Source: Nitrospirota bacterium (lineage in GTDB: Bacteria > Nitrospirota > Thermodesulfovibrionia > UBA6902). From it: 64,000 nt of DNA. Where the stretch lies: contig JACRLN010000037.1 of assembly GCA_016215115.1 (NCBI GenBank), positions 30,551-94,550 of the forward strand. The letters run 5' to 3'. The position numbers and the translations under genes were made by a program. This document shows, in pieces, positions 13,890 to 32,204 of the stretch; position 1 is the stretch's first letter, and each line of letters opens with the position of its first letter. The notes under the pieces are model-generated. The model was given only the letters and a program-made list of their open reading frames with translations. It did not search any database and had not been told where the DNA came from.

Positions 13890-13905
13890 TGCCCTGTCAT
13901 AAGCT

Positions 13906-13934
13906 GTCGTCATTCCCGCGCAAGTGAGAATCCA
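13906..13934. repeat. MITE family A remnant (single degenerate hairpin), copy A5
   Basis: gtcgtcattcccgcgcaagtgagaatcca in the 48-bp gap before the LolA-like gene. Confidence 0.5.
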
Positions 13935-13937
13935 TTG

Positions 13938-14603
13938 ATGAAAATAAACAAAATATTTTTTATATCCTGTCTCGTTACTTGTTTTTTGTTCCTGTTTATC
14001 GCTTCAGCATTGACAGCGGGAGATGAAACCGCTGACATCACAGAAATGCTGAGCAGGCTCGGAGAAAATGTTTCAGCCTTCAGGAGCTTAAAAACGAATT
14101 TTGTTCAAGAGAAGGATCTGGCAATATTTCAAAACAGGATTATCATGAAGGGCAGGATTTATCTGCAAAAGCCGAACAGGATGGCCTGGCATGTTGACGA
14201 GCCTGTTAAATATTCGGTAGTAATTACAGATAAATCCATTCGTCAATGGGATGAAGATACAAACCGGGTTCAGGAGATCGGTTTATCCGGTAATCCCGTT
14301 TTTCAAAATGTACTGAATCAGTTGACAGTATGGTTCTCAGGAGATTATGTTTCACTGCTGAAAGACTATAATGTGCGCATCCTGAAGAAGTCACCTCTTG
14401 TATTTGAGTTTACGCCAAAAGGGAATAATGTTGCAGGAAAGATCATCAAAAACATAACTATCGGTCTCAGGGAAGATGAACGATATTTACAACAGATTAA
14501 GATTCTTGAGATCAGCGGAGACAGCACCACCATCATTTTCAAAGACACCATCTTTAATGCCCCGATTAACGATCCGGACTTTGAGGTAAAGAGGCGTGTT
14601 TGA
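13938..14603 (+). CDS. LolA-like outer-membrane lipoprotein carrier family protein (ApeL-like)
   Basis: ~221 aa; signal peptide KINKIFFISCLVTCFLFLFIASALTA; LolA-like pattern FxQEK...GxIYLQKPNRMAW. Confidence 0.7.
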   Translation: MKINKIFFISCLVTCFLFLFIASALTAGDETADITEMLSRLGENVSAFRSLKTNFVQEKDLAIFQNRIIMKGRIYLQKPNRMAWHVDEPVKYSVVITDKSIRQWDEDTNRVQEIGLSGNPVFQNVLNQLTVWFSGDYVSLLKDYNVRILKKSPLVFEFTPKGNNVAGKIIKNITIGLREDERYLQQIKILEISGDSTTIIFKDTIFNAPINDPDFEVKRRV

Positions 14604-16965
14604 CAGATATGCAAGTCGTTTATACGACTTCACGGCAAGACACAAACGGTTTGTGCAGCTTATCCTCATCTTTTTAATTATTATCAGTCTTGCCGCCCTT
14701 TTTTTTGTGAAGTTTGAGAGCAATATGTCCGAGATCCTGCCCCAGAATAAGATCATCAGCCGGAGCATTGAATTTTTCCGTGATTCAAACATTGCCGGCA
14801 AGGTCATCGTATCTTTAGAACTGACCTCTCCTGACAAAGATCAAAAGGACCTTTTGAGAGAGATTGACTCGCTGGCCGGTTCCATGGACAAGAGTTTGTT
14901 CCCTGCAATTGCTGTCGGTATATCTGAATCTTCATCTGCAAATGCAATAGATAATATGTTTAAAAACCTTCCGGGAATGGTCTCTGAGAGCGAGATTTCT
15001 CAAATTGATTCATGGATAAACGTGGAACGCGTATCTCAAAAACTTCACGACGCCTACCTGCAACTGTTAAAACCCCAGGGGGTTTTCATGAACTCCATGC
15101 TCCGCTCCGATCCGCTTGGATTGAGGATGCTTGTATTTGAAAAACTCAAAACACTGTCATCTTCAACCGGATATGATGTGGAAATAAAAGACGGGCATTT
15201 TATAAGCAGGGACGGCAGGCATGCCATGTTGATTGCAAACTCCGCAGTTCCCGTTACAGATTCTGAAGGCTCAAAGAAATTGCTGGATTCTCTGAAGAAT
15301 AACCTCAAAAAACTGCCTGAATACATCTCGGCTGATATCATTTGCGTACATGCGCATACTGTCAGCAATGAAAAAACAATCAGGAGAGATATAAATTTCA
15401 TCAGCGTTGTCGCGGCGGTGGTCCTGATACTGTTGTACGTTTTTGTCATAAGAGACTTCAGCGCCGTTCTGATATTTTTTGTCCCCGTGATAGCCCTTCT
15501 GTTTTCCATTGTCCTGTCGTATTTTTTTCTTGGGAAACTTTCATACTGGGTAATCGGCTTGGGGTCCACAGTGGCAGGAATTACCATTGATTACGGGACA
15601 CATGTTTATTTTGCTGCAAGGGGGAAGATCGACCCGTCCACTTTTGTAAAGCATGTTATAAAACCGGTCAGCTTCGGCGCATTTACAACCATAGCGATAT
15701 TCATTGCCTTCTTTTTCTCAAAGATTGAGGGCTATAACCAGCTGGCTGTTTTTACAATCATCACCATTATTCTATCAACGGCTGTCTCTATATTTGTGCT
15801 TCCGCATCTCATCGTAAATACAACTGGGAAATCACACTTTGCAGACCATGCTGCAAACAAACTTGAGAACACAAATCTCTCAAACGGCCTGACTGTTTTA
15901 TCATGGTTATTTTTAACATTCGCATTGGCCTCCTTTGCTGCTCATGTAGAGTTTGAGAGGGACATAAAGAAGATTGACGGGACTGAAAAAAACATTATAC
16001 AGGCTGAAGAACGTTTCCATAAAACATGGGGCGGTGAGAAGACACATGCCGTGTTTGTTGTCAGTTCAAAAAATTACGAAGAAGCGCTTGAAGTGAATGA
16101 AAAGATTTACAGTGAGGCTGTGCAGGCTGTTGGGACGGGGAATTTTACCAGCATCGCTTTATTATTGCCGTCTGAAAAGACAAGAAAAGAAAATTCAGAA
16201 CGATGGAACAGATTCTGGTCGGAAGATAGGAGACAGAGGCTCAGGAAATTGTTTTTAGAGGAGGGCCGAAAGTACGATTTTTCAGAAAACGCGTTCGAAC
16301 CGTTTTTCTCGAATCTGAAAGCATATAGTAGTAAAAACGATGTCCCGGATTTCAATTTTTTAGAACGCTTTGTTCATAAAACCAATGACGATTACCGTTT
16401 GATGTCATTTTTCCCTGATACTAAAGAATATGTAGACTTGCTGAATGAAATAAGCACCCGGTATCCGAATACATATCTGGTCTCTGAGACTGTCCTTTCA
16501 GACACTTTGTCTAAAGTTGTTTCCGCAGATTTAAAGCTCATGATATGGATATCGGCTGTAAGTGTAATGGTCCTTACTTACATGTGTTTTTTCAATATCA
16601 GAGAAACCTTGATAGCGCTTGTGCCTCCAGCGACCGGAATTATCTGGCTTATGGGCATCATGTCGCTTCTCGGGCTTTCAATAAATGTTGCTAACATGAT
16701 TGCGGGTGTACTGGCGATAGGGCTTGCTTCGGACTATGGAATATTTATGACATACAGAAGCCGTTTCAATATACAAGCCGGCACCGTCCTGGCGATAACC
16801 CTCTGTACAGTGACCACTCTTATTGGCGCAGGCGTCCTGATTTTTGCAAAACATCCGGCCCTGTCATCAGTAGGAGTAACAATGGTTATCGGCGTAGGCA
16901 CAGGATTTCTTTCCTCAATAGTTGTAGTGCCAAAGCTTTGCGAACTTTTTGTGAAAAAAAGATAG
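14596..16965 (+). CDS. MMPL/RND-superfamily exporter (ApeM-like predicted lipid exporter)
   Basis: 789 aa; two blocks of ~5-6 TM helices, each preceded by a large soluble loop; GTG start overlapping the upstream stop. Confidence 0.8.
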   Translation: MFDRYASRLYDFTARHKRFVQLILIFLIIISLAALFFVKFESNMSEILPQNKIISRSIEFFRDSNIAGKVIVSLELTSPDKDQKDLLREIDSLAGSMDKSLFPAIAVGISESSSANAIDNMFKNLPGMVSESEISQIDSWINVERVSQKLHDAYLQLLKPQGVFMNSMLRSDPLGLRMLVFEKLKTLSSSTGYDVEIKDGHFISRDGRHAMLIANSAVPVTDSEGSKKLLDSLKNNLKKLPEYISADIICVHAHTVSNEKTIRRDINFISVVAAVVLILLYVFVIRDFSAVLIFFVPVIALLFSIVLSYFFLGKLSYWVIGLGSTVAGITIDYGTHVYFAARGKIDPSTFVKHVIKPVSFGAFTTIAIFIAFFFSKIEGYNQLAVFTIITIILSTAVSIFVLPHLIVNTTGKSHFADHAANKLENTNLSNGLTVLSWLFLTFALASFAAHVEFERDIKKIDGTEKNIIQAEERFHKTWGGEKTHAVFVVSSKNYEEALEVNEKIYSEAVQAVGTGNFTSIALLLPSEKTRKENSERWNRFWSEDRRQRLRKLFLEEGRKYDFSENAFEPFFSNLKAYSSKNDVPDFNFLERFVHKTNDDYRLMSFFPDTKEYVDLLNEISTRYPNTYLVSETVLSDTLSKVVSADLKLMIWISAVSVMVLTYMCFFNIRETLIALVPPATGIIWLMGIMSLLGLSINVANMIAGVLAIGLASDYGIFMTYRSRFNIQAGTVLAITLCTVTTLIGAGVLIFAKHPALSSVGVTMVIGVGTGFLSSIVVVPKLCELFVKKR

Positions 16966-16981
16966 GTAGACCTAAAAAAAG

Positions 16982-17147
16982 CAATTGAGCCACAGAGATC
17001 ACAGAGAAAGACTTAAAAGACAATATGTTAAGACATAAAGTCATTTCACCTTTCGGGTGAGAGCAAAACAGATGCAAATATTATGAGTAAGTTTTTGAAT
17101 ACGAATTCTTTTATCTCTGTGTTCTCTGTGTACTCTGTGGTTAATTG
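16982..17147. repeat. MITE family B copy B2 (complete)
   Basis: Terminal inverted repeats caattgagccacagagatcacagagaaag and ctctgtgttctctgtgtactctgtggttaattg. Confidence 0.85.
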
Positions 17148-17168
17148 CCGTTTATAGGGTAGAAAATT

Positions 17169-17834
17169 ATGAAACTGTTAGCGGTAATCTTTATCGTGCT
17201 TGTTTGCGTCGTTGGCTGCAGCGGTATTCCATTTCAGAAAACTTTATACGTTTCGATGGAATCTGTTGACCCGTGGACGCTTGTGGAACAGTTCAGGAAT
17301 AATTCTCCTGAAAAATTCGCGCTCATAAACACAATTGTTTTTGGATACAATTGGAATAAATTATCAGCGTTAGGTTATATAAAGGTAGATGCAGGGGAAA
17401 AGACGTTTACAGCAGTATGCATCAACCCGATGGGCGTGAAGCTGTTTGAATTGACAGGCGATAAAGATAAAATTGATCCCCATTTTGTAATGGAGCAGTT
17501 TTCCAGGAAGGGGAATTTTGCCGGTACGGTAGGAGAGGATATCAGGCGGATCTATTTCGACCTGACACCTTCTGCCGGGGCCGTGGTTAATAAGAAAAAA
17601 ATAAAAATTGTTTTTAGCGAACCTGCGGGGTCAGGTATTTTAGAATATATATTTGCAGGCTCCGCCGGTCTTCTTGTTGAAAAAAATTATTATGAAGATG
17701 GTATATTAAACTGGCGTATTTCCTACTACGAATACCTGCAAAAAGACGGAAAAAATTATCCTTCAGGTATTATTCTGGAAAATTACAGGTATGGATACAG
17801 CCTTACCATAAAATTAAAGGAGATCCGGGGTTGA
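17169..17834 (+). CDS. Lipoprotein, DUF3261/ApeN-like
   Basis: 221 aa; lipobox VVGC after a hydrophobic signal (MKLLAVIFIVLVCVVGCSG); position directly after the MMPL gene, as in ape clusters. Confidence 0.55.
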   Translation: MKLLAVIFIVLVCVVGCSGIPFQKTLYVSMESVDPWTLVEQFRNNSPEKFALINTIVFGYNWNKLSALGYIKVDAGEKTFTAVCINPMGVKLFELTGDKDKIDPHFVMEQFSRKGNFAGTVGEDIRRIYFDLTPSAGAVVNKKKIKIVFSEPAGSGILEYIFAGSAGLLVEKNYYEDGILNWRISYYEYLQKDGKNYPSGIILENYRYGYSLTIKLKEIRG

Positions 17835-18214
17835 GTATCATAAAGAGAGAGGTTGAACAATGCATGACCGCTTTAGAAGCAGTGGTAATACAGGAATTGC
17901 CGGCGCTGACTGCACGTTTCACATTCCCCGAAGATTTTATAGGTTTTCAGGGTCATTTCCCCGGGAATAAGATACTTCCGGGCGTCTGTCAGATACAATG
18001 CGCCCTGACCATGCTTGAGAAATGGAGGAACAGGGATGTCATACTTAAGGAAATAGTGCATGCAAAGTTTTTTTCAACGGTAGTCCCCTCGGAAGAGTTT
18101 GCCTGTGTGTGCAAAGGCATCGAGGCAACAGACGCTGATTTTATATTGAAGTCATACCTCAGCAAGGGCGACAGGAAGATTTCGGAGTTGAAGTTGAAAG
18201 TAAGATTTAAATAA
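17831..18214 (+). CDS. 3-hydroxyacyl-ACP dehydratase (FabZ/ApeP-like hotdog)
   Basis: 127 aa; catalytic motif FQGHFPGNKILPGV; TTG start overlapping the upstream stop. Confidence 0.8.
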   Translation: MSIIKREVEQCMTALEAVVIQELPALTARFTFPEDFIGFQGHFPGNKILPGVCQIQCALTMLEKWRNRDVILKEIVHAKFFSTVVPSEEFACVCKGIEATDADFILKSYLSKGDRKISELKLKVRFK

Positions 18215-18224
18215 GTTAAACGCT

Positions 18225-18311
18225 GTCATTCCCGCAGTCCTTAAGCGGGAATCCAGAAGCAGTTGATTTAAAAGAATACTGGATTCCCGATAAAAAACTT
18301 CGGGAATGACG
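18225..18311. repeat. MITE family A copy A6
   Basis: gtcattcccgcagtccttaagcgggaatccag...ctggattcccgataaaaaacttcgggaatgac. Confidence 0.85.
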
Positions 18312-18391
18312 AGTCGACACTTTGCATATATCTTGATTGATATAAACAGTTTATACCCACAGAAATGTCGGACGAACGAAATTTTTAAAAA

Positions 18392-18883
18392 ATGATGAAT
18401 AGGCGAAGAGGGAAGAATTATTTTAAGAGGATTGATGGAGCGCCTGACCCTGTTGTGGTTGAAGTCAGAAGGCGCGTACATTTCAATGAAGTTGATATCC
18501 TTGGGATGGTCTGGCACGGCAGATACCCTGTTTATTTTGAAGAAGGGTCCGAAGAATTAGGCAGATCCTGCGGCTTGTCTTATAGAAATTTTTATGAATC
18601 AGGATTACGCGCCCCGATTGTTCAGCTTCACATTGATTATTTTAAACCGCTGCGTCTCGCTGAGGAGTTTACAATACGCACTGTACTGTTATGGGACGAA
18701 AGTTCACGCCTGAATACAGAGTATTATCTTTTAAAAACTGACGGAAGTCTTGCGACAAGCGGTTATACGGTGCAATTGCTGACCGGCGCCGAGTCAGGAG
18801 AAGTTTGCATTATATCCCCTCCGCTATTGGAAAGGTGCAGGACCAGATGGAAAGCAGGAGAATTTCATCATCAAACAAAATAA
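18392..18883 (+). CDS. Acyl-CoA/acyl-ACP thioesterase, 4HBT (YbgC/ApeK-like) hotdog
   Basis: 163 aa; VRRRVHFNEVDILGMVWHGRYPVYFEEG matches the 4HBT signature (acidic residue, then GxVxHxxY). Confidence 0.75.
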   Translation: MMNRRRGKNYFKRIDGAPDPVVVEVRRRVHFNEVDILGMVWHGRYPVYFEEGSEELGRSCGLSYRNFYESGLRAPIVQLHIDYFKPLRLAEEFTIRTVLLWDESSRLNTEYYLLKTDGSLATSGYTVQLLTGAESGEVCIISPPLLERCRTRWKAGEFHHQTK

Positions 18884-19998
18884 AGGCCGTTGTTGTTGCC
18901 TGCGACGTGGTAACTGCATTCGGGCCCGGTGTGGATGCATGCTGGAAGGGTATCATTTCCGGCGAAACCGCAATTTCGGAATTAAAGAGGTTTAACACAC
19001 AGGCTTTTCAGTCCGGTCATGCTGCCACAATTGAAGGTTTAAAATACCTTCAGAAAGATTCTTTGGTGATGCAAATGTTCAGACTGATGTTTAAAAAAAA
19101 TCCTCCTTCTGTACCGAAAGACGCAAAACTCATTCTGGCAACAACAAAGGGAGAGATTGACCTGCTGGAAAAGAAATTTCTCAGAGGAAAGGGGAACGCA
19201 TCAAACGCTAATTTGCGTTATCTGCTGAAAAAAGTCTCTGCCCTCGCAGGTATTCAGGACAGTGGAATAATTATTTCGGCTGCCTGCTCTTCCTCATCAG
19301 CGGCTTTGGCAAGGGGAGCATCAATGATACGTAACGGATACAGCGATTGTTTATTGATAACCGCATGCGACAGCGTTACGGAATTTGTTTATTCAGGCTT
19401 TTCCTCGCTTATGGCGCTTGATAAAATTGCTGCGAGGCCTTTTGATAAAGACAGAAGGGGATTAAGTCTTGGCGAGGCCGCTTCATATGCATTACTCATG
19501 AGTGAAGCGAGGGCCAAAAAAGAAAAAAGGGAGATTATGGGTGAAATAAAGGGCTGGGGATTGAGCGACGACGCCAACCATATGACAGGTCCTTCGCGCA
19601 CAAGCGATGGTTTGATAATGGCTATAAGCAAGGCGCTGAAATCTGCAGCCGTTGTCGCAAGCGATATCTGTTTTATCTCAGCACATGGCACCGGAACGCT
19701 TTACAATGACGAGATGGAGATGCGGGCGTTTCATTCTGTATTCAAAAAAAGGATCCCGGTTTATTCTGTAAAGGGAGCAATCGGTCATACTATCGGGTCG
19801 GCAGGTCTTGTCGAAGCAATAATAGCGCTCAGGGCTTTAAAGGAGAAGACCGTTCCACCGACCGTCAATTTGAAAACCGCTGACGATGATGCATGGGGCT
19901 GGGTCTCGGACAAAAAGAAAACATTAACGCGTAATAATGCGGCGCTTATAACAAATGCCGGTTTCAGCGGGATAAATACAGCGCTTGTAGTGGGATGA
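18847..19998 (+). CDS. Beta-ketoacyl synthase (ApeO-like elongating KS)
   Basis: Active-site Cys in ISAACSSSSAAL; SAHGTGT and GHTIGSAG. ATG 18847 is preferred; the ORF-track start is 18805. Overlaps the thioesterase 3' end. Confidence 0.85.
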   Translation: MESRRISSSNKIKAVVVACDVVTAFGPGVDACWKGIISGETAISELKRFNTQAFQSGHAATIEGLKYLQKDSLVMQMFRLMFKKNPPSVPKDAKLILATTKGEIDLLEKKFLRGKGNASNANLRYLLKKVSALAGIQDSGIIISAACSSSSAALARGASMIRNGYSDCLLITACDSVTEFVYSGFSSLMALDKIAARPFDKDRRGLSLGEAASYALLMSEARAKKEKREIMGEIKGWGLSDDANHMTGPSRTSDGLIMAISKALKSAAVVASDICFISAHGTGTLYNDEMEMRAFHSVFKKRIPVYSVKGAIGHTIGSAGLVEAIIALRALKEKTVPPTVNLKTADDDAWGWVSDKKKTLTRNNAALITNAGFSGINTALVVG

Positions 19999-20017
19999 GA
20001 TACATTAAAGAAAATCC

Positions 20018-20689
20018 ATGATCAACATTCACGGCATAGGATGGATAACTAAAGAAGAATACGGCTGTATCGCCAGAGGGGAGAAGATCCCTTATAAAAA
20101 CGTTGTTGAATTTGACAGCTTTTTAAGAAAGAGAATTTTCCCCTGTCCGTTTAAGAATTTCGGGAGACTTGATAGAATATCAAAGCTGACCTGTTATGCG
20201 ATTGCGCTTGCTATGAAGGATGCCGGTATTTCTTACATACCTCAGAAAAGGCAGGACATCGGGATTGTCGGCGCCGGCGATTCAGGTTCGCTGCAATCGG
20301 ATATTGATTATTTCAAAGACTATTTAGATTGCGGACGGACATTGTCACGGGGGAATCTCTTTATTTATACCCTGCCTTCAAGCCCGCTGGGAGAAGCGGC
20401 AATACATTTTGGTTTGCAGGGACCATTGTTATACACTGCGGCTCCGGAGGAACCTCTCCGGACAGCAATGACAATTGCATCTGAAATGGTCCTTTCCGGT
20501 GAGACCCCTGCAATTCTTGCCGGGATGACAGAGGATGGTGCGGCTGTCTATTTTGTGCTCATGAAAGACAGCGTTTCCAATAAAAATATTTTATGTGATG
20601 AAAAAGATATCAGGGCAATTTTAAACAAGGGGATGACGTTTAAGAAAATGATTAAAGAGTTGCTAAATTTAAGAAAAGGGAACAATTAA
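20018..20689 (+). CDS. KS-like partner lacking the catalytic core (chain-length-factor/ApeC-like)
   Basis: 223 aa, half the length of a KS; KS N-terminal-like sequence with no Cys-His-His triad; immediately follows a KS. Confidence 0.65.
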   Translation: MINIHGIGWITKEEYGCIARGEKIPYKNVVEFDSFLRKRIFPCPFKNFGRLDRISKLTCYAIALAMKDAGISYIPQKRQDIGIVGAGDSGSLQSDIDYFKDYLDCGRTLSRGNLFIYTLPSSPLGEAAIHFGLQGPLLYTAAPEEPLRTAMTIASEMVLSGETPAILAGMTEDGAAVYFVLMKDSVSNKNILCDEKDIRAILNKGMTFKKMIKELLNLRKGNN

Positions 20690-21954
20690 TGAAAATAATA
20701 ATTATCTACCCATCATGGCCCAAATTAAACCGGCAGACAGAATTCCATCTCCCACCTCACGGCCCTGTCTGTTTTGCTGCGGCCATTCCTGATGATATAG
20801 AACTTTCTTTTTACGATGAAAACGTGCAGGCCATTGACTTTGATGAAAAGGCTGATCTGGTGGCTTTTTCGGTCATGCTGACCTGTCAGATACCGCGTGC
20901 ATGGGAACTCGCCGAACGGTACAGGGGACAAGGCATACCGGTCATATTCGGCGGCATCGCTACGATGCTGCATTATGAAGAAACCCTCCAGCATGCTGAC
21001 GCCGTTTTCCTCGGCGAGGCAGAGGGGAGATTTGAAGAAGTCATAAACGATATCAGGAATAATAATCTGAAACGGGTTTACAACTATCTTAATGAATTCC
21101 CGGACATGAATTTAATCGGCTCCGCAAGGCGCAGTATTCTAAACCGCAAATTATATAACTACCGCGGGGTGCAGATGGTGGACCTTGTACATGCATCCCG
21201 GGGGTGCAAATATAATTGCTTCCCCTGCTGCACGCCTTTCCTGGGAGGACGTAAATTCAGGGCCAGGGCGATAGATTCGGTAATTCAGGAACTGGAACAG
21301 ATTGATAATAACCGCATCTTCTTTGTTGACAATTCACTCGCCCAGGATGACAAATGGGAAAAGGAATTATTCAAGGCGCTTATCCCTCTCAGGAAAAAAT
21401 GGATTTCACATCCTATTAAAGACGATGACGAGATACTTGATCTGGCTGCCGAAGCCGGCTGCTGGTATGTGTATCAGGCAGTGTTTGACACCTCCGATCA
21501 CATAAGAAAAAGGGTCCGGCGGCTAAAGGAACGCGGGATCGGGGTTGAGGGTACTATTATTCTGGGTATGGACGACCACGATGAAGATTATATAAAACGG
21601 CTTGTTGATTTCCTCCTCGAGATTGATTTGGACCTGGCGGAATTTACAATACTCACACCGTTTCCGCATACTCCCATAAGGGCTGAACTCGAGAAAGAAA
21701 AGAGGATTCTCCATAATGACTGGATGCGGTACACAGGAGCGGAAGTCGTGTTTCAGCCTGCAAAGATGAGCGTGGATGCATTGCAGAAGATGTTTTTTTA
21801 TGCGTGGGATACGTTTTACAGTGGTTGCAGTCAGAACTTTCAAATGGCAAAGATGTTTCTGAAGGTAATTGAAAAGGAAAAAGCAGACGGCACGTATAAG
21901 GGGAGCCGTCCCAGAAGATCAGGCTGGAATAAAATGACAGGAAAACCGCAATGA
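20689..21954 (+). CDS. B12-binding-domain radical SAM enzyme (class B)
   Basis: 421 aa; N-terminal flavodoxin-like MKIIIIYPSW...; cluster motif ASRGCKYNCFPC; TAATG stop/start overlap. Confidence 0.85.
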   Translation: MKIIIIYPSWPKLNRQTEFHLPPHGPVCFAAAIPDDIELSFYDENVQAIDFDEKADLVAFSVMLTCQIPRAWELAERYRGQGIPVIFGGIATMLHYEETLQHADAVFLGEAEGRFEEVINDIRNNNLKRVYNYLNEFPDMNLIGSARRSILNRKLYNYRGVQMVDLVHASRGCKYNCFPCCTPFLGGRKFRARAIDSVIQELEQIDNNRIFFVDNSLAQDDKWEKELFKALIPLRKKWISHPIKDDDEILDLAAEAGCWYVYQAVFDTSDHIRKRVRRLKERGIGVEGTIILGMDDHDEDYIKRLVDFLLEIDLDLAEFTILTPFPHTPIRAELEKEKRILHNDWMRYTGAEVVFQPAKMSVDALQKMFFYAWDTFYSGCSQNFQMAKMFLKVIEKEKADGTYKGSRPRRSGWNKMTGKPQ

Positions 21955-23324
21955 AGATATTATTGATTTCATCCAATACAACGACGTCGCCGTATCCGAT
22001 TTATCCGCTCGGTGTCAGCATAATTGCAGCCGCTCTGACAAATGCCGGACACTATGTGCGTCAATTCGATATACTGCAGCATGAAGATTTTCTGACAGCC
22101 CTGGGGCAGGAGATAGAACGGTTTAATCCGGGATTGCTCGGCATCTCCATACGCAATATTGACAACGTCAATTTAATGAATGAACAGTATTACATAGAAA
22201 CAGTAAAAACCATAGTAAAGAAAATAAGGGAAGTTTCAAAAAACAAAATCCTGCTCGGCGGAGCGGGTTTCTCCCTGTTGCCTGAATTAATCCTAAATGA
22301 AACAGGCGCTGATTACGGAATCATCGGAGAAGGCGAATCGTCTGTTGTAAAGTTTGCCGCTGATGCAGCCAATGGAATATATCCTGAGACACAAATAATC
22401 GGACCGGTGACAAGGCTTCAGGGACCGGAAATATTTTCGGCGCAGTATGAAGAGGATTTAATAAAATTCTATCTTCAGAGCGGCAATATCGCCTCCGTGC
22501 AGACAAAACGCGGATGCACCCACAAGTGCATTTACTGTTCATATCCCGTGCTGGAGGGTTCCGATATCCGGCAGAGAGACCCCCGTTCTGTTGTTGATGA
22601 TATAGAGCTGCTTTCCGATAAACACAAAGTAAAATATATCTTTTTTGTGGATTCCGTGTTCAATGACGACGGAGGCGCCTACCTTGGGGTAATTAATGAA
22701 ATGCTCCGGCGCAAGGTAACCGTGCCGTGGACAGGATTCTTCAAGCCCCGGGAACTGAATGACGAAATCGTCGAGATGATGAAACAGACAGGGCTTATTG
22801 CAGTTGAAATCGGCTCTGACGCCGCATGTGACACCACCCTGCGAAAACTGGGAAAAGGGTTTTCTTTTCAGGATATCATGGAATGCAACGATTTATTTGT
22901 CGCGCATGGAATAGCCACATCGCATTTTTTCATGTTCGGCGGTCCAGGGGAGACGCAAGAGACCGTGCTCGAGGGAATCGAGAATATCAAGAAGTTAAAA
23001 AAATGCGTTGCATTTATTTTTATGGGTATAAGAATCCTGCCTGATACTCATCTCGCACACATAGCGTTAAAAGAAAAAGTCCTCTCCGCGGATAACGGCA
23101 TGCTTAAACCGGTTTATTATATTTCACCTGCAATTGACAGGGACTGGATGGAGAAAACCCTGACCGAGGCATTTGCGGCCATCAGACACTGCGTCTTCCC
23201 GCCGGACACCTTTGACACCAGTCTGCGGATGCTTCACAAAATGGGATATTCCGGCACATTGTGGGATCTGCTTCTTCCTGATAAAAAGCATCCGGCAAGG
23301 AAACACAATGCTGCAAAACAATAA
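21951..23324 (+). CDS. B12-binding-domain radical SAM enzyme (class B; 'lipid biosynthesis B12-binding/radical SAM' type)
   Basis: 457 aa; MKILLISSNTTTSPYPIYPLGVSIIAAAL; cluster motif KRGCTHKCIYCSYP; ATGA overlap with the upstream rSAM. Confidence 0.85.
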   Translation: MKILLISSNTTTSPYPIYPLGVSIIAAALTNAGHYVRQFDILQHEDFLTALGQEIERFNPGLLGISIRNIDNVNLMNEQYYIETVKTIVKKIREVSKNKILLGGAGFSLLPELILNETGADYGIIGEGESSVVKFAADAANGIYPETQIIGPVTRLQGPEIFSAQYEEDLIKFYLQSGNIASVQTKRGCTHKCIYCSYPVLEGSDIRQRDPRSVVDDIELLSDKHKVKYIFFVDSVFNDDGGAYLGVINEMLRRKVTVPWTGFFKPRELNDEIVEMMKQTGLIAVEIGSDAACDTTLRKLGKGFSFQDIMECNDLFVAHGIATSHFFMFGGPGETQETVLEGIENIKKLKKCVAFIFMGIRILPDTHLAHIALKEKVLSADNGMLKPVYYISPAIDRDWMEKTLTEAFAAIRHCVFPPDTFDTSLRMLHKMGYSGTLWDLLLPDKKHPARKHNAAKQ

Positions 23325-24474
23325 TGAAATATGGTGCGCAATCCCTGTTTTTAATAACAGGGATACTGTAAAAGATATTGTATCAGTCTGCCGTTCGATC
23401 CTGAAGAATGTAGTTGTAGTCGACGACGGCAGCACAGACACGGATATTACCGCCCTGTTGTCTGACCTGGATGTCGCTGTGTTGAGACATGACAAAAACA
23501 TCGGCAAAGGGCAGGCGCTCCTCACTGCGTCAAAATATATAGAAACTCATGGCGGGCTTTATATGATAACCATTGACGCAGACGGGCAGCACAATCCAAA
23601 GGACCTCGAAAAATTCATTCCGCTGCTCAATGAAGATGCTCCGGGTATCATCATAGGCTGCAGAAATTTCAATACAGAAAACGTTCCATCGAAAAGCAGG
23701 TTTGGCAGAAAGTTTGCCAATTTCTGGCTGCGTGTGGAAACCGGAATATATGTTGACGATTGCCAGAGCGGATTCAGGGCGTATCCTGTCAAATATCTTA
23801 ATCAACTGAAGTGCAGGGGTTCGCATTATGACTTTGAGGCAGAAGTCCTGGCAAAAGCAGCGTGGGCCGGATTGCAATTAAAAACAGTTGATATTGACGT
23901 AAGTTATCCAAAGCCGGAGCATCGCATCTCCAGTTTTAAACCGTTTCTGGATAATTTACGCATCTCACATATCCACGCTAAACTTGTAGGAAGACGCCTG
24001 CTGCCATGGGGACACAAGCGGCTGGTCGAGCAGAAAAAGATTGATTTTAAAATACTGCGCCATCCCGGCAAATTATTGAAAATGCTGTTGACTGAAAATG
24101 CAACGCCGGGAGGACTGGCAATGGCTGCGGCCGTAGGCGCTTTCTTTGCCATTCTCCCTCTGCTTTTTATTCATACGGTTATAATAATTTATGTTTCTAC
24201 GCGCCTGAATCTCAATAAAGTTATTTCAGTTAATGTCCAGCATTTTTTCATGCCTCCGTTTGTGCCGGCTATGTGCATTGAAACAGGTTACTATCTGAGA
24301 CATGGATATTGGCTTACGGACCTTTCTTTTGAGACTGTTTTCTCACAATTTTCCGACCGGTTGTTCGAGTGGTTTTTGGGTTCTTTAGTTATAGCGCCTG
24401 TTGGGGCGGTCCTTATGGGCGGTATTATCTTCACTGTTGCGGCAAAGATAAAGAAGCGAATTGCAGCGATATGA
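23308..24474 (+). CDS. Family 2 glycosyltransferase fused to a C-terminal membrane (DUF2062-like) domain (ApeJ-like)
   Basis: IPVFNNRDTV...VVVDDGSTD and DADGQH (DxD); 3-4 C-terminal TM helices; ATG 23308 is preferred to the ORF-track start 23173. Confidence 0.8.
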   Translation: MLQNNNEIWCAIPVFNNRDTVKDIVSVCRSILKNVVVVDDGSTDTDITALLSDLDVAVLRHDKNIGKGQALLTASKYIETHGGLYMITIDADGQHNPKDLEKFIPLLNEDAPGIIIGCRNFNTENVPSKSRFGRKFANFWLRVETGIYVDDCQSGFRAYPVKYLNQLKCRGSHYDFEAEVLAKAAWAGLQLKTVDIDVSYPKPEHRISSFKPFLDNLRISHIHAKLVGRRLLPWGHKRLVEQKKIDFKILRHPGKLLKMLLTENATPGGLAMAAAVGAFFAILPLLFIHTVIIIYVSTRLNLNKVISVNVQHFFMPPFVPAMCIETGYYLRHGYWLTDLSFETVFSQFSDRLFEWFLGSLVIAPVGAVLMGGIIFTVAAKIKKRIAAI

Positions 24475-24504
24475 GTGATTGACAAATACAAATGGTTGCA
24501 TAAT

Positions 24505-24584
24505 ATTATGGACACCTAATTGACCTGTCACTCCGGCTTGTCCGGAGTCTTCCCAAAGAAGGATTCCCGACAAGCGGGAATGAC
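24505..24584. repeat. MITE family A variant copy A7
   Basis: ttatggacacctaattgac terminal block, hairpin cactccggcttgtccggagtc, then ggattcccgacaagcgggaatgac. Confidence 0.6.
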
Positions 24585-24639
24585 ACATGTACTGCAGTCA
24601 ATACTATTATGCGCATTTTAATATCATGTTCCAGCACAA

Positions 24640-25548
24640 ATGAACAAACAGGAAAAAATCAATAAAAAAAGAGGTAATAAGTTAGGCTTCTGGTTTTTCA
24701 GGGCTGCTTTACAATTGTTCGGACTGCCGGGCGCCTATGGATTGCTTTATTTTGTCTGCCTGTACTATCTGCTGTTTGACCGGCCTGCCGTATCTTCAAG
24801 TATGGCTTACATAAAAAGACGGTTTAAAGCATATAACGCTTTTCAGAAAACCCTCTGTGTCTACAACTTATTTATCAATCAGGGGAAAAATCTGATAGAC
24901 CGGTATTATATCCTTTCCGGGCTTGGAGAGTTTGACATAGAAATTCAGGGATATGATAAAATACAAAACCTTTTATCCAGCTCTCAGAAAGGCGTTATCT
25001 TACTCACTGCACATGTGGGGAACTGGCAAGTCACGATGACTGTATTAAAGCGATTGGAGAAGACAGTCTACTTGTTGATGTCACCGGAGGAAAACATGGC
25101 AGTTAAAAAAACTTTGAGTGTTGATAGTGATAATGAAAAGATCAGGATTATATCTTCCGGAAATTTCCTTGGCGGCGTTATCGAAATTATGAAGGTAATA
25201 AATGAGGGCAGCCTTGTTTCCATAATGGGTGACCGCAGTGATGGATATCCTTCTGCAGAAGCATATTTTCTCGGAGAAAAAGCTGATTTCCCTTATGGTG
25301 CATTCAGCATTGCAGCCGCAGCGCAATGCCCTGTAGTTATTTTGCTTTCAGCAAAAGTTTCAACAAGAAAATATGTTGCGGATGTCTCCCATGTCATATT
25401 CCCACGTTATAGTTCCAGAAACAAAAAACATGAGGAAATAAGCGCATGGGTTCAGGAGTTTGCCGGGGTTCTGGAAGGCTATGCTGAAAAATATCCATTT
25501 CAATGGTTTGTGTTTCGTGATCTCTGGAAGAAAAATATTGAAAAATAA
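24640..25548 (+). CDS. LpxL/HtrB-type lysophospholipid (lauroyl/myristoyl) acyltransferase (ApeD-like)
   Basis: 302 aa; N-terminal TM; catalytic region LTAHVGNWQV (HxxxxE/Q type, as in LpxL). Confidence 0.7.
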   Translation: MNKQEKINKKRGNKLGFWFFRAALQLFGLPGAYGLLYFVCLYYLLFDRPAVSSSMAYIKRRFKAYNAFQKTLCVYNLFINQGKNLIDRYYILSGLGEFDIEIQGYDKIQNLLSSSQKGVILLTAHVGNWQVTMTVLKRLEKTVYLLMSPEENMAVKKTLSVDSDNEKIRIISSGNFLGGVIEIMKVINEGSLVSIMGDRSDGYPSAEAYFLGEKADFPYGAFSIAAAAQCPVVILLSAKVSTRKYVADVSHVIFPRYSSRNKKHEEISAWVQEFAGVLEGYAEKYPFQWFVFRDLWKKNIEK

Positions 25549-25564
25549 ATAAAGGAGCATACAA

Positions 25565-25849
25565 ATGCAAAAAGACAATGCACAGGAATTGGCACAGACA
25601 AGAAAAACTTTAAAAGAGCTGCTTGTAAAAGAATTGTCCCTTGAAGACATCAACCCGGAAGATATTAAGGACGATGAAGTATTGTTCGTGGAAGGACTGG
25701 GGCTGGACTCGCTGGATGCAGTTGAGATCGTGGTGCTTCTGCAGCGCAACTTCGGCCTGGAGGTCAAGGACCTGGAAAACAGGAGGGATATTTTTTATTC
25801 CATTGATACCCTCGCAAAATATATATACGAGAACAGAAAAAACATTTAA
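25565..25849 (+). CDS. Acyl carrier protein
   Basis: 94 aa; LGLDSLDAVEIVVLL. Confidence 0.9.
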   Translation: MQKDNAQELAQTRKTLKELLVKELSLEDINPEDIKDDEVLFVEGLGLDSLDAVEIVVLLQRNFGLEVKDLENRRDIFYSIDTLAKYIYENRKNI

Positions 25850-25899
25850 TGAAATCACCTGGTAAAGAACTCCGGGGTTTCCGCAGCTTTTTATGCCAT

Positions 25900-26835
25900 A
25901 TGAACAGTTTCATCTACTTTGCATTCATATTGTTTCTCATTTCATCATGCAACGGGGTAACCGCAAAAAATACCTCCTCAATTAACAATAAATCAAAGCC
26001 CCTTGTTACGTTTGTCTTTGATGACGGCAACGAGACGGATTATACAGTTGCCAGAGATATTTTCAGTTCGCAGGGTGAGGTTGCCTGCACCGCTGTCGTA
26101 ACAAATTGGGTTAACACTAAAAATTATTTGAGCGTCTCCCAGCTTGCGGAACTCCAAAAAGACGGTTGGGAAATATTAAGTCATACAGAATCTCATCCGA
26201 ACCTGAAAACCCTGTCCGGGAGTCAGGTTGAAGCTGAATTATCTAAATCAAAATCAATTCTTGAAAACCTGGGACTCACTATCAAAAATCTCGTTTATCC
26301 ATATAACAAAACTAATGAAACTGTCAAAAAAATCGCAGCGAAATATTACAGGTCAGGAAGAGATGGGGGCAGTATGTTAAACCCGTATATTTTAGACAGG
26401 TATGAGTTGAAATCTTACTCTATTAAACATGATCTCAGTAAAATGAAAAGCTATATTGACAATGCGCATTCTGAAAAAAAATGGCTGATCTTTTACCACC
26501 ATCAGATTGATGCAAAAATAAAGATATCAGATAAAAACGGCAATCTTATTTTAGGAGAAAATTTATTTTTTCAGCCTTCAGGTGCAAAAGGCAAATATAC
26601 CGCCAGTGGAATTGCTTTTCCGGATACCGCAATATATTTTACTCCTCTTTCAGGAATTCCACACGCAGATGATACAATCACAGGCCAGACGAGCGGGGCA
26701 ACAGGCAAGTTAGACAGGGTAATCTACAATGAGAAAGAAGATATTAAGGACATGATTGAATATATCCATACAAATTATCCTGAAATGAAGATTGTGACAA
26801 TTGATAAAGGGTTGGATTTTATGGAGATACCTTGA
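25900..26835 (+). CDS. Polysaccharide deacetylase (NodB homology) lipoprotein
   Basis: FVFDDGNETDY and LSHTESHPNL motifs. The ATG at 25900 gives a lipoprotein signal (FILFLISSCNG). The ORF-track start is 25849. Confidence 0.7.
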   Translation: MNSFIYFAFILFLISSCNGVTAKNTSSINNKSKPLVTFVFDDGNETDYTVARDIFSSQGEVACTAVVTNWVNTKNYLSVSQLAELQKDGWEILSHTESHPNLKTLSGSQVEAELSKSKSILENLGLTIKNLVYPYNKTNETVKKIAAKYYRSGRDGGSMLNPYILDRYELKSYSIKHDLSKMKSYIDNAHSEKKWLIFYHHQIDAKIKISDKNGNLILGENLFFQPSGAKGKYTASGIAFPDTAIYFTPLSGIPHADDTITGQTSGATGKLDRVIYNEKEDIKDMIEYIHTNYPEMKIVTIDKGLDFMEIP

Positions 26836-27989
26836 TTAGTATAACGGGTCTTGGTGCAATCTCGGCAGCAGGCCGCAATATCGCTGAAACGCTCGATTCC
26901 TTCAGCCTCAATAGGAGAACTGCCGGGCCTGTAACATTATTTGATACGCCCCTGAAATATCCTGTCTTTGAGGTCAAAGGTATTCCCGATAAATATAATT
27001 TAGAAGGACAGCGGACATTGAGTCTTGCCCTCTGTGCAATTGATGCAGCTTTAAAAGATGCAGCTCTTGATGATCTGTCATCATACAGGGTAGGCGTCTG
27101 CCTGGGCACAACTGTGGCAAGCCAGTTGAATGACCTTGAATTTTACAAATCATATCGTACGACCGGTTCTGCTCCGATGACATCTGTAGACAGATACTTG
27201 AAGGGGAATCTTGCTGAATTTATCTCCCATAGGATCAAGGCAAAAGGTCCGGCGCTCACAGTGGTTAACGCATGTTCATCGGGTACTGATGCAATCGGGG
27301 TTGCGCTGTCGTGGCTGAATAACGGTTTATGCGACATTGCTGTCGCCGGAGGGGCGGATGAATTAAATCGAGTTCCCCTATGCGGGTTCGGCTCCCTCGG
27401 GATTGTCAGCATGGACCCTTGCGCTCCTTTTGACAGGGATAGAAAGGGACTAAATCTGGGCGAGGGGGCTGGTGTTGTGGTTTTGGAGACAAAAGAATCT
27501 GCCGGAAAGAGGGGCATAATATCCGATTTATTTCTTGCAGGATACGGATCTTCGAGTGATGCATATCATCTCACTGCTCCTCATCCCGAAGGGACCGGAT
27601 TGAAAGCGTCAATTGAAAAGTCCCTGTCAGATGCCGGCATTCAGCCTCATGATGTAAGTTTTATTAACGCACACGGTACGGCAACGCATGACAATGATCT
27701 GGTTGAAGGAAATGTCCTGGCAAACATCTTTGGGACGGGTTTAAAGATGCTGTCTACAAAAGGTTTTACAGGACATACATTGGGTGCGGCCGGAGGGCTG
27801 GAGGCCGTCTTTACAACAGCCGGTCTGAGAGAAGGATGGATCCCCGCGAGCACCGGTTTTGAAAATAAAGATGATGCTATCCCTTTAATTCCCGTGAGAG
27901 AAAAGACAAATATTGCCGGACGGTATGCTGTTTCCACATCGCTTGCATTCGGGGGCAATAATGCAGCGATAGTAATTGGAAGGATGTGA
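26832..27989 (+). CDS. Beta-ketoacyl synthase (third catalytic KS)
   Basis: 385 aa; VVNACSSGTDAIG (active Cys), NAHGTAT, GHTLGAAG; TTG start overlapping the upstream stop. Confidence 0.85.
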   Translation: MISITGLGAISAAGRNIAETLDSFSLNRRTAGPVTLFDTPLKYPVFEVKGIPDKYNLEGQRTLSLALCAIDAALKDAALDDLSSYRVGVCLGTTVASQLNDLEFYKSYRTTGSAPMTSVDRYLKGNLAEFISHRIKAKGPALTVVNACSSGTDAIGVALSWLNNGLCDIAVAGGADELNRVPLCGFGSLGIVSMDPCAPFDRDRKGLNLGEGAGVVVLETKESAGKRGIISDLFLAGYGSSSDAYHLTAPHPEGTGLKASIEKSLSDAGIQPHDVSFINAHGTATHDNDLVEGNVLANIFGTGLKMLSTKGFTGHTLGAAGGLEAVFTTAGLREGWIPASTGFENKDDAIPLIPVREKTNIAGRYAVSTSLAFGGNNAAIVIGRM

Positions 27990-28012
27990 TAAAGCGGGTG
28001 GAGATTTTTTAA

Positions 28013-29110
28013 ATGAACATTCTTGGAATAGGCATTGTTTTCAGCCGTGGAAGGGGCATAGATTGTTTTGAAAAAGCCCTTCAAGAGGGATGGCGAGCGC
28101 CTTCTGAGGTTGAAATAAAGGGTAAAAAATCTTTTGCATATCAGGTTGACCCACAGACAATATCTGACAAGACATTGCTGAAGAAAATGCGGCGTGCTGA
28201 CAAGTTGAGCAGAATGGCGGTGCTGGCTGCTGCTGATGCACTGAACAACAGCGGGATAGAAATTACAAACAAAAAAATCGGCATTATCACCTCCACAGCT
28301 TTTGGCGCTCATGTAACTACATTTGACTTCCTGAATGACATTCTTGATCACGGCGAGGCAAATGTATCTCCGACCACTTTTTCCAATTCTGTTCATAATG
28401 CCGCAGCTTCGTATGTATCTTCGGCGCTGGATATTGAGGGACCGACATTGACCGTGACGCAGTTTTTCTTCTCTTTTCATTCTGCACTTCAGCTTGCACA
28501 GGTATGGCTTGATGAAAAACGCTGCGATTATATCCTTGTAGGAGCTGTTGAGCAATACGGCGATGTGCTCGGTTATATATATGACTCGAAATTGAAGCAG
28601 GCGTCTGACGGCAGAATAAGGCCGTTCAATTTTACTCCGGCTTATCATGTGCCGGGGGAGGGCGCTGTCTTCTTTCTGGTGAGCAAAGAAGATCCGGAAA
28701 ATGCGTACTGTAAAGTTGAAGACATAAAAATTCGTCATTCCCGCGAAGGCGGGAATCCAGCCCTTCGACAAGCTCAGGGTGACAATATTGTTCAGGCAGA
28801 TTTAAATATCATTGACACAGACGGCATGTTGTCTGACGAATCTGTTTATATGTCAACGGTTTCTCCTCACATTCCGACAGCAGCTTATTCACCGTTATTC
28901 GGCAGCATGATGATAGGCAGCGCCTTCAACTGCACTGCAGGGGCATTAATGCTTAAGAAACAATTTTACTATGCAAATCCTGTTATGGATAACCCCCGGG
29001 GGATTCATCTTATAAATAATGCCAGATGCGCTAATATTGAATTAATTCGCTGTATAAGGTATAGTTGTCATAGCGAAAAAGCTGCTATCTATCTAAGAAA
29101 AAACCATTGA
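28013..29110 (+). CDS. KS-like protein without the active-site Cys (second CLF-like partner), carrying an in-frame MITE
   Basis: 365 aa; thiolase-fold-like sequence with ITSTAFGAH where the Cys motif is expected; residues RHSREGGNPALRQAQGD are encoded by repeat 28733-28783. Confidence 0.6.
   Translation: MNILGIGIVFSRGRGIDCFEKALQEGWRAPSEVEIKGKKSFAYQVDPQTISDKTLLKKMRRADKLSRMAVLAAADALNNSGIEITNKKIGIITSTAFGAHVTTFDFLNDILDHGEANVSPTTFSNSVHNAAASYVSSALDIEGPTLTVTQFFFSFHSALQLAQVWLDEKRCDYILVGAVEQYGDVLGYIYDSKLKQASDGRIRPFNFTPAYHVPGEGAVFFLVSKEDPENAYCKVEDIKIRHSREGGNPALRQAQGDNIVQADLNIIDTDGMLSDESVYMSTVSPHIPTAAYSPLFGSMMIGSAFNCTAGALMLKKQFYYANPVMDNPRGIHLINNARCANIELIRCIRYSCHSEKAAIYLRKNH
28733..28783. repeat. MITE family A/D hybrid copy A8, in frame inside a CDS
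   Basis: cgtcattcccgcgaaggcgggaatccag + cccttcgacaagctcagggtgac; 51 nt = 17 codons. The second half matches the intergenic copy at 53458-53480. Confidence 0.85.
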
Positions 29111-29125
29111 ATTTTCAACCCACAT

Positions 29126-29368
29126 ATGACATTGCAAAACATTCAGGACAAATTGATACAGGGAATCGCTGCGATAACAGCGAAAGATGAATCTTCTATT
29201 GCGCCGGATGTGCCTTTTCATAAACTGGGAATTGACTCTCTCGGCTTTGTAGAAATCCTCGTCTTCATAGAAAAGACTTTTAATCTTCAGTTAATAGAAT
29301 CAGGGCTGGACAAGAAAGATTTTGAGACAATCCGCTCCTTAGCAGCTTTTATTCATAAAAAATTATAA
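29126..29368 (+). CDS. Acyl carrier protein
   Basis: 80 aa; LGIDSLGFVEILV. Confidence 0.9.
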   Translation: MTLQNIQDKLIQGIAAITAKDESSIAPDVPFHKLGIDSLGFVEILVFIEKTFNLQLIESGLDKKDFETIRSLAAFIHKKL

Positions 29369-29370
29369 CT

Positions 29371-30717: not shown

Positions 30718-30721
30718 GCTG

Positions 30722-32014: not shown

Positions 32015-32020
32015 AAGAGC

Positions 32021-32204
32021 ATAATTAGAGTCTGTCCATAAAGTCAAACACTGAAGCGTCATTCACGCAGTCTGTTGAGCGGGAATCCAGTCTTATTAAC
32101 AAGTTCTGGATGCCCGATTAAAGACCCCCGATTACGACACTCGAGGGCAGGCTTCGGGCATGACAAAAATAAAAAATAGCAATTTATGGACAAATACTAA
32201 TAAC
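32021..32204. repeat. MITE family A copy A9 (complete, long form)
   Basis: Termini attagagtctgtccataaa / tttatggacaaatactaat enclosing gtcattcacgc..gcgggaatccag and ctggatgcccg...cgggcatgac. Confidence 0.85.

Follow-up and report, generated by a model that had tools for sequence, protein, structure and literature searches.

Two overlapping B12-type radical SAM genes

The stretch of DNA analysed here (the window) comprises 64,000 nucleotides of the Nitrospirota bacterium assembly GCA_016215115.1 (contig JACRLN010000037.1, positions 30,551 to 94,550), and our subject is a pair of overlapping genes in it that encode radical S-adenosylmethionine (SAM) proteins of the cobalamin (B12)-binding type. 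The first, rSAM1 (20689..21954, + strand), encodes 421 amino acid residues and represents an unnamed, very highly conserved family of radical SAM proteins with a B12-binding domain. The second, rSAM2 (21951..23324, + strand), encodes 457 residues and is a member of the NCBIfam family TIGR04072. Both lie in a co-directional 31-kb gene cluster (6062..37410, + strand) of an aryl polyene (ape)/flexirubin-like type II polyketide synthase (PKS)-lipid kind, which was recognised by Pfam and NCBIfam scans and whose order is kept in other genomes. An earlier note, made from the sequence alone, had placed the two genes between a ketosynthase/chain-length factor (KS/CLF) pair and a glycosyltransferase gene, and this location is correct, with KS_b and CLF_b upstream and a GT2+DUF2062 gene downstream. 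The comparison with other genomes described below shows that the pair is the constant, translationally coupled core of a widespread lipid cluster of anaerobic Gram-negative bacteria; its identity and context are near certain.

The junctions were read directly from the sequence, and the overlaps proposed earlier (TAATG at 20689 and ATGA at 21951) are both present. The stop codon TAA of CLF_b (20687-20689) shares 1 nt with the ATG of rSAM1 at 20689, the TGA of rSAM1 (21952-21954) overlaps the ATG of rSAM2 at 21951 by 4 nt, and the 3' end of rSAM2 is overlapped by 17 nt if the GT2 gene begins at its likeliest start, ATG 23308. In the public gene call, rSAM2 (P0271) has 453 residues with an apparent TTG start four codons downstream of ATG 21951; with the ATG start, the protein has MKILLISSN as its conserved N-terminus and the two genes overlap at ATGA (window 21951-21965). 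rSAM1 and rSAM2 are shown to be co-transcribed and translationally coupled. No B12 riboswitch or other RNA element was found within the window.

The two CxxxCxxC motifs pointed out before, GCKYNCFPC and GCTHKCIYC, stand in the translations at C173/C177/C180 of rSAM1 and C189/C193/C196 of rSAM2. These cysteines are invariant in the alignments and present in 140 of 140 rSAM2 homologues. The radical SAM domain (PF04055) scores 34.0 bits in rSAM1 and 73.0 bits in rSAM2 against a Pfam gathering score of 29.5. Because the gathering score of 32.1 for the B12-binding domain (PF02310) is also passed, by 42.3 bits in rSAM1 and 58.9 bits in rSAM2, the N-termini formerly described as flavodoxin-like are Rossmann-type B12-binding domains in both proteins. 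The two share about 25% identity over 200 residues. Their sequences support the classification of both as class-B-type radical SAM proteins, as had been proposed, and for rSAM1 a confident structural model bears out the fold.

In the case of rSAM2, the match to TIGR04072 (rSAM_ladder_B12, 'lipid biosynthesis B12-binding/radical SAM protein') reaches 633.6 bits against a cut-off of 360 and covers residues 2-442 of the protein and positions 1-442 of the 443-position model; its NCBI and JGI homologues bear the same family name. With this, rSAM2 falls into a family that NCBI had curated before, and the arrangement is not unique. The runner-up models BzaD (209 bits) and TsrM (137 bits) stay under both family cut-offs, and the AprD4-family model NF033070 gives 42 bits and does not reach its cut-off of 500. 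The best characterised relatives, which share the two-domain architecture, are TsrM (tryptophan 2-C-methyltransferase, PDB 6wte) and BzaD (predicted benzimidazole C-methylase), which act in thiopeptide or B12 biosynthesis, whereas rSAM2 stands in a lipid/PKS context. No other protein of the cluster is as closely related to these two as rSAM2. BzaD has been described as a predicted Csp2 methylase that is TsrM-like (PMC12931638). Both domains of rSAM2 align to TsrM in a profile comparison (E = 5e-37), and rSAM2 carries the cobalamin-type motifs LLGGAGFS and GIIGEGE.

Two positions in this profile alignment deserve attention. In TsrM, R69 is the arginine closest to the cobalt, and Glu273 ligates the unique iron in place of SAM (PMC9204698). 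G64-x-S66-x-R68 of rSAM2 corresponds to G65-x-T67-x-R69 of TsrM, so that the Gly-x-Ser/Thr-x-Arg motif placing an arginine under the cobalt is common to TsrM/BzaD and rSAM2. D234-S235-V236 of rSAM2 aligns with D271-S272-E273 of TsrM, which puts a valine at the position of the iron-ligating Glu273. The motif x-S-x-R-N-x-D was matched in 129 of the 140 rSAM2 homologues, all of which have V, I or L at the Glu273 position, and the divergent homologues inspected also keep S-x-R-N, with Cys for the leading Gly. In this respect the cobalamin domain of rSAM2 resembles those of sp2-carbon methylases. Since it lacks the Glu ligand, rSAM2 is not to be filed as TsrM-type, and a TsrM-type non-radical mechanism is ruled out; judged by these residues, it should bind SAM on its cluster in the ordinary radical-generating way. 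The presence of the Arg together with the absence of the Glu is a signature of TIGR04072 that is newly described here. We found no characterised function in the literature for TIGR04072 or for this cluster type in Geobacter, Desulfovibrio or Thermodesulfovibrio.

rSAM1 did not reach the cut-off of any NCBIfam model. Its best score is 66.7 bits on TIGR04013, and it stays far under the cut-offs of HpnJ (52 bits), BchE (48 bits), TIGR04072 (52 bits) and AprD4 (NF033070; 39.4 bits versus 500); with 52 bits against a cut-off of 360, it is therefore not a TIGR04072 member. When 1.84 billion representative proteins were searched, full-length relatives with 48% identity or more numbered only two, and the remaining full-length matches, at 40% or less, are generic B12-type radical SAM proteins. 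More distant homologues (ten alignment members scanned against NCBIfam) score best on BchE and HpnJ. We thus point out rSAM1 as an unnamed, ultra-conserved partner family that is covered by no model scanned.

A structure of rSAM1 was predicted with AlphaFold2 from an alignment of 116 sequences, after a single-sequence AlphaFold model (predicted local distance difference test, pLDDT, 39.8) had been discarded. The model is confident (pLDDT 94.6, predicted template-modelling score 0.91) and has two domains, the N-terminal one of beta-alpha type. Its top Foldseek match is AprD4 (PDB 6fd2; template-modelling (TM) score 0.78, about 17% identity), a radical SAM 1,2-diol dehydratase acting on an aminoglycoside without cobalamin, followed by MgmA, TsrM, MiaB, CysS and OxsB, of which MgmA, TsrM, CysS and OxsB are cobalamin-bound. 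The profile of the rSAM1 orthologues likewise matches AprD4 best (E = 8e-12, residues 15-369), over both domains, and its N-domain also aligns to the cobalamin-dependent MgmA. AprD4 and ArsL share the fold but are without cobalamin (PMC12931638). In rSAM1, G88-G89 and G109-E110-A111-E112, which occupy the positions of the cobalamin GG and GE motifs (VIFGG, LGEAEG), are invariant among orthologues, whereas AprD4 lacks both motifs in the alignment. A cobalamin-type fold is thus present in rSAM1, and a missing fold, named in advance as evidence against the earlier proposal, was not what we saw. Moreover, at residues 23-26 (window 20755-20766), in the loop after strand 1, PPHGP is nearly invariant in the orthologues, and distant B12-type homologues carry PPLxL at this site, the 'His loop' position. 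The low family score and the retained cobalamin motifs rule out that rSAM1 is an AprD4-family dehydratase. An auxiliary Fe-S cluster in rSAM1 is also ruled out, as its extra cysteines are not invariant.

Distribution and coupling of the pair

A scan seeded with rSAM2, with one genome per species, returned 376 genomes with a relative, of which the best 80 loci were examined, and a metagenome scan seeded with rSAM1 added 80 further loci, giving 160 fetched loci overall. Some metagenome contigs may duplicate loci of metagenome-assembled genomes (MAGs), and the counts of overlapping pairs given below are for this reason not fully independent. The nearest homologues are found in MAGs of Nitrospirota/Thermodesulfovibrionia, the closest genome locus (L013) being 94% identical at rSAM2; the organism itself is known from metagenomes alone. 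The best 80 loci come from Nitrospirota, Geobacterales/Desulfuromonadales, other Desulfobacterota, Elusimicrobia, Nitrospinota, Deferribacteres, Verrucomicrobiota (Victivallales and Kiritimatiellales) and Planctomycetota, including MAGs labelled Brocadiaceae. At least eight phyla are represented among the examined loci, with rSAM1 immediately 5' of rSAM2 almost everywhere.

The gene order was traced by tblastn with all proteins of the cluster. Common to most loci is the succession of SPASM-domain radical SAM protein, LolA, MMPL, DUF3261, ApeI, thioesterase, KS_b, CLF_b, rSAM1, rSAM2, GT2, LpxL, acyl carrier protein (ACP), polysaccharide deacetylase, KS, KS', ACP, an unknown protein, a flavin adenine dinucleotide (FAD) oxidoreductase and rSAM3. 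In 67 of the 68 rSAM1-centred loci having downstream DNA an rSAM2-like gene adjoins rSAM1, and CLF_b stands immediately 5' of rSAM1 in at least 54 of 67. The scattering of homologues over unrelated contexts, which would have spoken against the proposal, was accordingly not seen. Chance adjacency or spurious open reading frames are ruled out by the conservation and by the gene order kept over the 160 fetched loci. Stop and start codons of the two genes overlap in 119 of 148 pairs (about 80%), by 4 nt in 94 and by 1 nt in 25. Furthermore, no protein of the cluster is better conserved than rSAM1, which shows 62-96% identity across phyla; the median identity over all loci is 73.5% for rSAM1 versus 65.4% for rSAM2, and in the distant phyla the values are 68.7% for rSAM1, 54.4% for rSAM2, 61% for the small carrier protein ACP2 and below 50% for the other enzymes.

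A few loci depart from this pattern. In an Elusimicrobia MAG (L065, 8648-11359) the orthologues of rSAM1 and rSAM2 are fused in frame into a protein of 873 residues, the only fusion among the 148 pairs, which could be an assembly error. In a Desulfobacteraceae MAG (L078, 9512-12545) the block of thioesterase, KS_b, CLF_b and rSAM1 is absent and rSAM2 directly follows the ApeI-like gene, the rest being kept; an upstream rSAM1 is likewise missing from rSAM2 in L054. The neighbours are changed in Elusimicrobia and some Verrucomicrobiota, where the pair itself is intact. In addition, a sub-type of the cluster was found in metagenomes (L126, L128, L131, L132, L137, L139, L142, L143, L145, L148, L150, L154, L156, L158 and L159), where rSAM1 (62-67% identity) precedes, in this order, a divergent rSAM2 (37-44%), an extra HpnJ-like radical SAM protein (45-50% to rSAM4) and GT2. 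The near-obligate coupling of the pair, the single fusion and the joint loss of rSAM1 and the KS/CLF block are new here.

These data bear on two statements of the earlier note. The link of the pair to the KS/CLF genes is strengthened by the position of CLF_b in the majority of loci and by the joint absence of thioesterase, KS, CLF and rSAM1 in L078. The view that the pair is the step diverting an ape-type polyene into something new does not stand, as the pair is the constant core of a cluster type found in hundreds of species and many phyla.

The surrounding cluster and its relatives

Upstream of the pair, KS_b (18847..19998, + strand, with 18847 as the likely start) is an ApeO-like elongating ketosynthase with matches to both the N- and C-terminal Pfam ketoacyl-synthase domains and to FabF/AmcF-like NCBIfam models (about 210 bits); direct reading of its sequence shows an intact Cys-His-His triad (AACSSS, HGTGT, GHTIGSAG). 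CLF_b (20018..20689, + strand) is an ApeC-like chain-length factor, a short KS-like partner of 223 residues without the catalytic Cys and with a weak ketoacyl-synthase N match. Downstream, the GT2+DUF2062 glycosyltransferase (23308..24474, + strand) is ApeJ-like by Pfam and weakly PpgS-like (NCBIfam PpgS, 83.8 bits).

The cluster as a whole begins with a short-chain dehydrogenase/reductase, a phytoene-desaturase-like FAD enzyme, a KS, an ACP, a PlsC-type acyltransferase and a FlxY-like (flexirubin-type) acyl/aryl-coenzyme A (CoA) ligase (11026..12417, + strand; NF053551 FlxY_rubin, 468 bits over the full length, just below the cut-off of 520), a candidate for starter-unit activation. These are followed by a SPASM-domain radical SAM gene of AhbD/NirJ-like type (12414-13889, + strand) within the same cluster, the export genes for LolA-like, MMPL/resistance-nodulation-division (RND)-like and DUF3261 proteins, an ApeI-like dehydratase and a 4HBT thioesterase. 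Then come KS_b, CLF_b, the pair, GT2, an LpxL-type acyltransferase, an ACP and a polysaccharide deacetylase, and after these a second pair of KS and KS-like genes, an ACP, a conserved protein and an FAD oxidoreductase. At the 3' end stand rSAM3, an HpnR-like B12-type radical SAM gene (32273-33745, + strand; Pfam and NCBIfam, 231 bits), an adenosine monophosphate (AMP) ligase (33742-35172, + strand), rSAM4, an HpnJ/BchE-like B12-type radical SAM gene (35169-36584, + strand; Pfam and NCBIfam, 181 bits), and a SAM methyltransferase. The cluster thus holds five radical SAM genes (four of B12 type and the SPASM one), more than one phytoene-desaturase-like FAD enzyme, three KSs with two KS-like partners, and three ACPs with Pfam PP-binding matches. 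Lip_A_acyltrans, 4HBT, LolA and GT2+DUF2062 were likewise matched in Pfam, as was DUF3261 at 23.0 bits versus 22.3; the MMPL match is weak (17.5 bits versus 20.5).

Within the cluster, a 448-residue protein encoded at 29371-30717 is kept across phyla; its sole match is a faint one, to the catalytic end of 2-oxoacid dehydrogenase acyltransferases, and it may be a CAT-type acyltransferase. At the 3' edge, on the opposite strand, there is a gene for a PagL-type lipid A 3-O-deacylase (37587-38180, - strand), which hints at a connection to lipid A or the outer membrane.

By its parts list, the cluster is of aryl polyene (ape)/flexirubin-like type. With the ape/flexirubin clusters of E. coli CFT073, Xenorhabdus doucetiae and Bacteroidota it shares the ApeO/ApeC-like KS and short CLF, ACPs, a FlxY/ApeH-like ligase, a 4HBT thioesterase (ApeK), an ApeI-like dehydratase, the GT2 (ApeJ-like), an LpxL-type acyltransferase (ApeD-like) and an export set of LolA-like (ApeL), RND/MMPL (ApeM) and DUF3261 (ApeN) proteins. 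Unlike the canonical ape clusters, which have none, it has five radical SAM genes, and it also differs from them in its extra KS pairs, phytoene-desaturase-like enzymes and polysaccharide deacetylase. In the published ape gene lists (PMC8253772) there is a class I SAM methyltransferase, ApeB, but radical SAM enzymes are absent, in agreement with the earlier statement that canonical ape clusters lack such genes. The ape product is an aryl polyene esterified to N-acetylgalactosamine (GalNAc)-phosphate-glycerol, which also bears a C26:5 conjugated acyl chain (bioRxiv 10.1101/2020.12.19.423268).

A second likeness is to the 'ladderane-type' clusters described for anammox bacteria and for Desulfotalea psychrophila (Rattray 2009; Javidpour 2016), with which the present cluster shares several radical SAM proteins, phytoene-desaturase homologues, divergent FabF proteins, a PaaK-like ligase, a polysaccharide-deacetylase-like gene, a methyltransferase and a glycosyltransferase. 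In Kuenenia, fatty acid synthase/PKS II-like clusters with several radical SAM proteins, phytoene-desaturase homologues and divergent FabF paralogues are syntenic with those of Desulfotalea, in which ladderanes were not found (PMC2649909). A divergent FabF has also been reported from Geobacter sulfurreducens (Rattray 2009). Heterologous expression of Kuenenia genes gave no new lipids, and the two radical SAM enzymes were not detected as proteins (PMC4790861). Broadly similar clusters have figured in the literature as 'ladderane-like' since 2009 (PMC2649909, PMC9902471), and genome mining has reported antiSMASH 'ladderane' clusters with no function assigned in Desulfobacterota, Verrucomicrobiota, Planctomycetota and other phyla (PMC9902471), a taxon spread that resembles that of the pair. 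The 'ladderane' B12-type radical SAM protein is still listed as uncharacterised in recent reviews (PMC13459092, PMC12931638). The cluster type is therefore known, catalogued and functionally uncharacterised, and the observation of the pair in it is real and robust.

Regarding the anammox genes themselves, Kuste3343/3342 adjoin the PaaK-like ligase Kuste3344, and DP1855/DP1853 of Desulfotalea are separated by one gene; Kuste3342/3343 and DP1853/DP1855 seem to resemble the arrangement of rSAM3, ligase and rSAM4 more than rSAM1/rSAM2. The pair is present in MAGs labelled Brocadiaceae, Brocadiia or Planctomycetota (L071, L075, L076). Among the 120 nearest homologues of rSAM2 from the Brocadiaceae MAG L075, none belongs to a named anammox genus such as Kuenenia, Brocadia or Scalindua. 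As this search returned only unnamed Brocadiia and Planctomycetota MAGs, a link of the pair to proven ladderane producers is not established. We know of no ladderanes from Nitrospirota.

Possible reactions of the pair

We tend towards a picture, at a little under even chances, in which the pair makes consecutive radical and methyl-cobalamin modifications of an ACP-bound chain; the particular chemistry is put forward with noticeably less confidence. KS_b and CLF_b would build an ACP-bound chain of aryl or polyene type. rSAM2, with a [4Fe-4S] cluster having an open iron site, would use methyl-cobalamin and a 5'-deoxyadenosyl radical to methylate an aryl or polyene carbon, or to form a C-C bond of a related kind there, and rSAM1 would act on the same intermediate in a further radical step, probably while complexed with rSAM2. 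Both steps would precede release by the thioesterase, and the modified acyl chain would then be joined to a sugar-phosphate-lipid anchor via GT2 and acyltransferases and exported to the outer membrane. On this view the substrate of the pair would be the growing chain and not the sugar or lipid anchor. A precedent is CysS (9n1b), one of the Foldseek matches of rSAM1, which is a class B radical SAM enzyme working on a pantetheine-tethered substrate.

Several points weigh against this picture. Among radical SAM enzymes acting on ketoacyl lipids, the sole entries in a 2026 review are Jaw5 and the hypothetical ladderane enzymes (PMC13459092). The substrate could be the sugar or anchor instead of the chain, and any aryl methylation could come from the class I SAM methyltransferase of the cluster. 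Because its best match, AprD4, is without cobalamin, rSAM1 may be neither a methylase nor B12-dependent, and its next-nearest named sequence relatives, BchE and HpnJ, are non-methylating, though their scores are far under cut-off. Moreover, an obligate complex is not universal, since L078 has rSAM2 without rSAM1, and only a single MAG shows the fusion.

It is in our opinion unlikely that one or both enzymes form C-C bonds by radical chemistry other than methylation on an ACP-bound polyunsaturated chain, such as cyclisation, ring formation or cross-linking of BchE/HpnJ type, up to a ladderane-like cyclobutane. HpnJ (52 bits) and BchE (48 bits) are among the closest named models of rSAM1 and the best ones for its distant homologues, but all these scores are far under the family cut-offs, and the nearest characterised relatives of rSAM2 are methylases. 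The phytoene-desaturase-like enzymes of the cluster could make the polyenes needed; TIGR04072 is named after ladderane producers, reviews propose B12-type radical SAM enzymes for cyclobutane formation, and some MAGs that carry the pair are labelled Brocadiaceae or Brocadiia. However, it is found in many phyla that are not known as ladderane makers, Desulfotalea has a related cluster in which ladderanes were not found (PMC2649909), and no protein of Kuenenia, Brocadia or Scalindua is among the 120 nearest relatives of the rSAM2 from the Brocadiaceae MAG.

To a similarly low degree we consider that rSAM1 works without cobalamin, which does not exclude the other explanations. Its Rossmann domain would be structural, as in AprD4 and ArsL, which reviews place without cobalamin, and it would run plain 5'-deoxyadenosyl radical chemistry (dehydration, epimerisation or desaturation), leaving rSAM2 as the sole class B enzyme. 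The best match to AprD4, the modest B12-binding score (42 bits) and PPHGP in place of the usual PPLGL loop are consistent with this idea, but G88-G89 and G109-E110-A111-E112 at the cobalamin GG/GE positions are invariant in the orthologues, and the N-domain aligns to the cobalamin-dependent MgmA and passes the Pfam gathering score.

Less probable again is a modification of the amino-sugar or lipid anchor, by AprD4-like radical deoxygenation or by GenK/Fms7-like C-methylation of a head group of GalNAc or N-acetylglucosamine type: AprD4, an amino-sugar enzyme, is the top structural (TM 0.78) and profile (E = 8e-12) match of rSAM1, rSAM2 overlaps the PpgS-like GT2 gene by 17 nt and stays beside GT2 in L078 where the KS/CLF block is gone, and the cluster has a polysaccharide deacetylase and canonical ape lipids a GalNAc-phosphate, but the identity to AprD4 is about 17%, its family model gives 39 bits versus a cut-off of 500, the cobalamin motifs missing in AprD4 are kept by rSAM1, and rSAM1 travels with KS_b, CLF_b and the thioesterase and is lost with them. 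Equally improbable to us is that the pair, fused in the Elusimicrobia MAG, forms a two-component radical enzyme for C-C bond formation other than simple methylation (such as cyclisation or cross-linking) on a polyene-ACP, giving an undescribed class of outer-membrane lipid; if true, anaerobic Nitrospirota, Desulfobacterota, Verrucomicrobiota, Elusimicrobia and Planctomycetota would share this lipid, and the enzyme would stand for the ancestral set of tools out of which ladderane chemistry arose.

Radical SAM enzymes acting on fatty-acid or polyketide-type lipids are almost unstudied. Solving the reaction of the pair, which is the most constant and best conserved element of its cluster, would define a widespread bacterial envelope lipid, give the rSAM1 family a function and test any role of TIGR04072 in ladderane formation. 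For reconstitution, practical starting points are offered by the fusion, the gene overlaps and the large number of orthologues, of which some come from groups that include cultivable members.

The genes flanking the cluster are unrelated regulators and housekeeping genes. On the 5' side, an open reading frame of 607 residues (3317-5140, - strand), for which Pfam gave nothing at E <= 1e-5, has a sigma-54 two-component system on one side and the cluster on the other. On the 3' side, a gene at 39844-44172 encodes a protein of 1442 residues with BcrAD_BadFG ATPase (two matched stretches) and DUF2229 (CoA-enzyme activase) domains, and 3' of it there is a gene for an outer-membrane protein similar to those of the MetA-pathway of phenol degradation.

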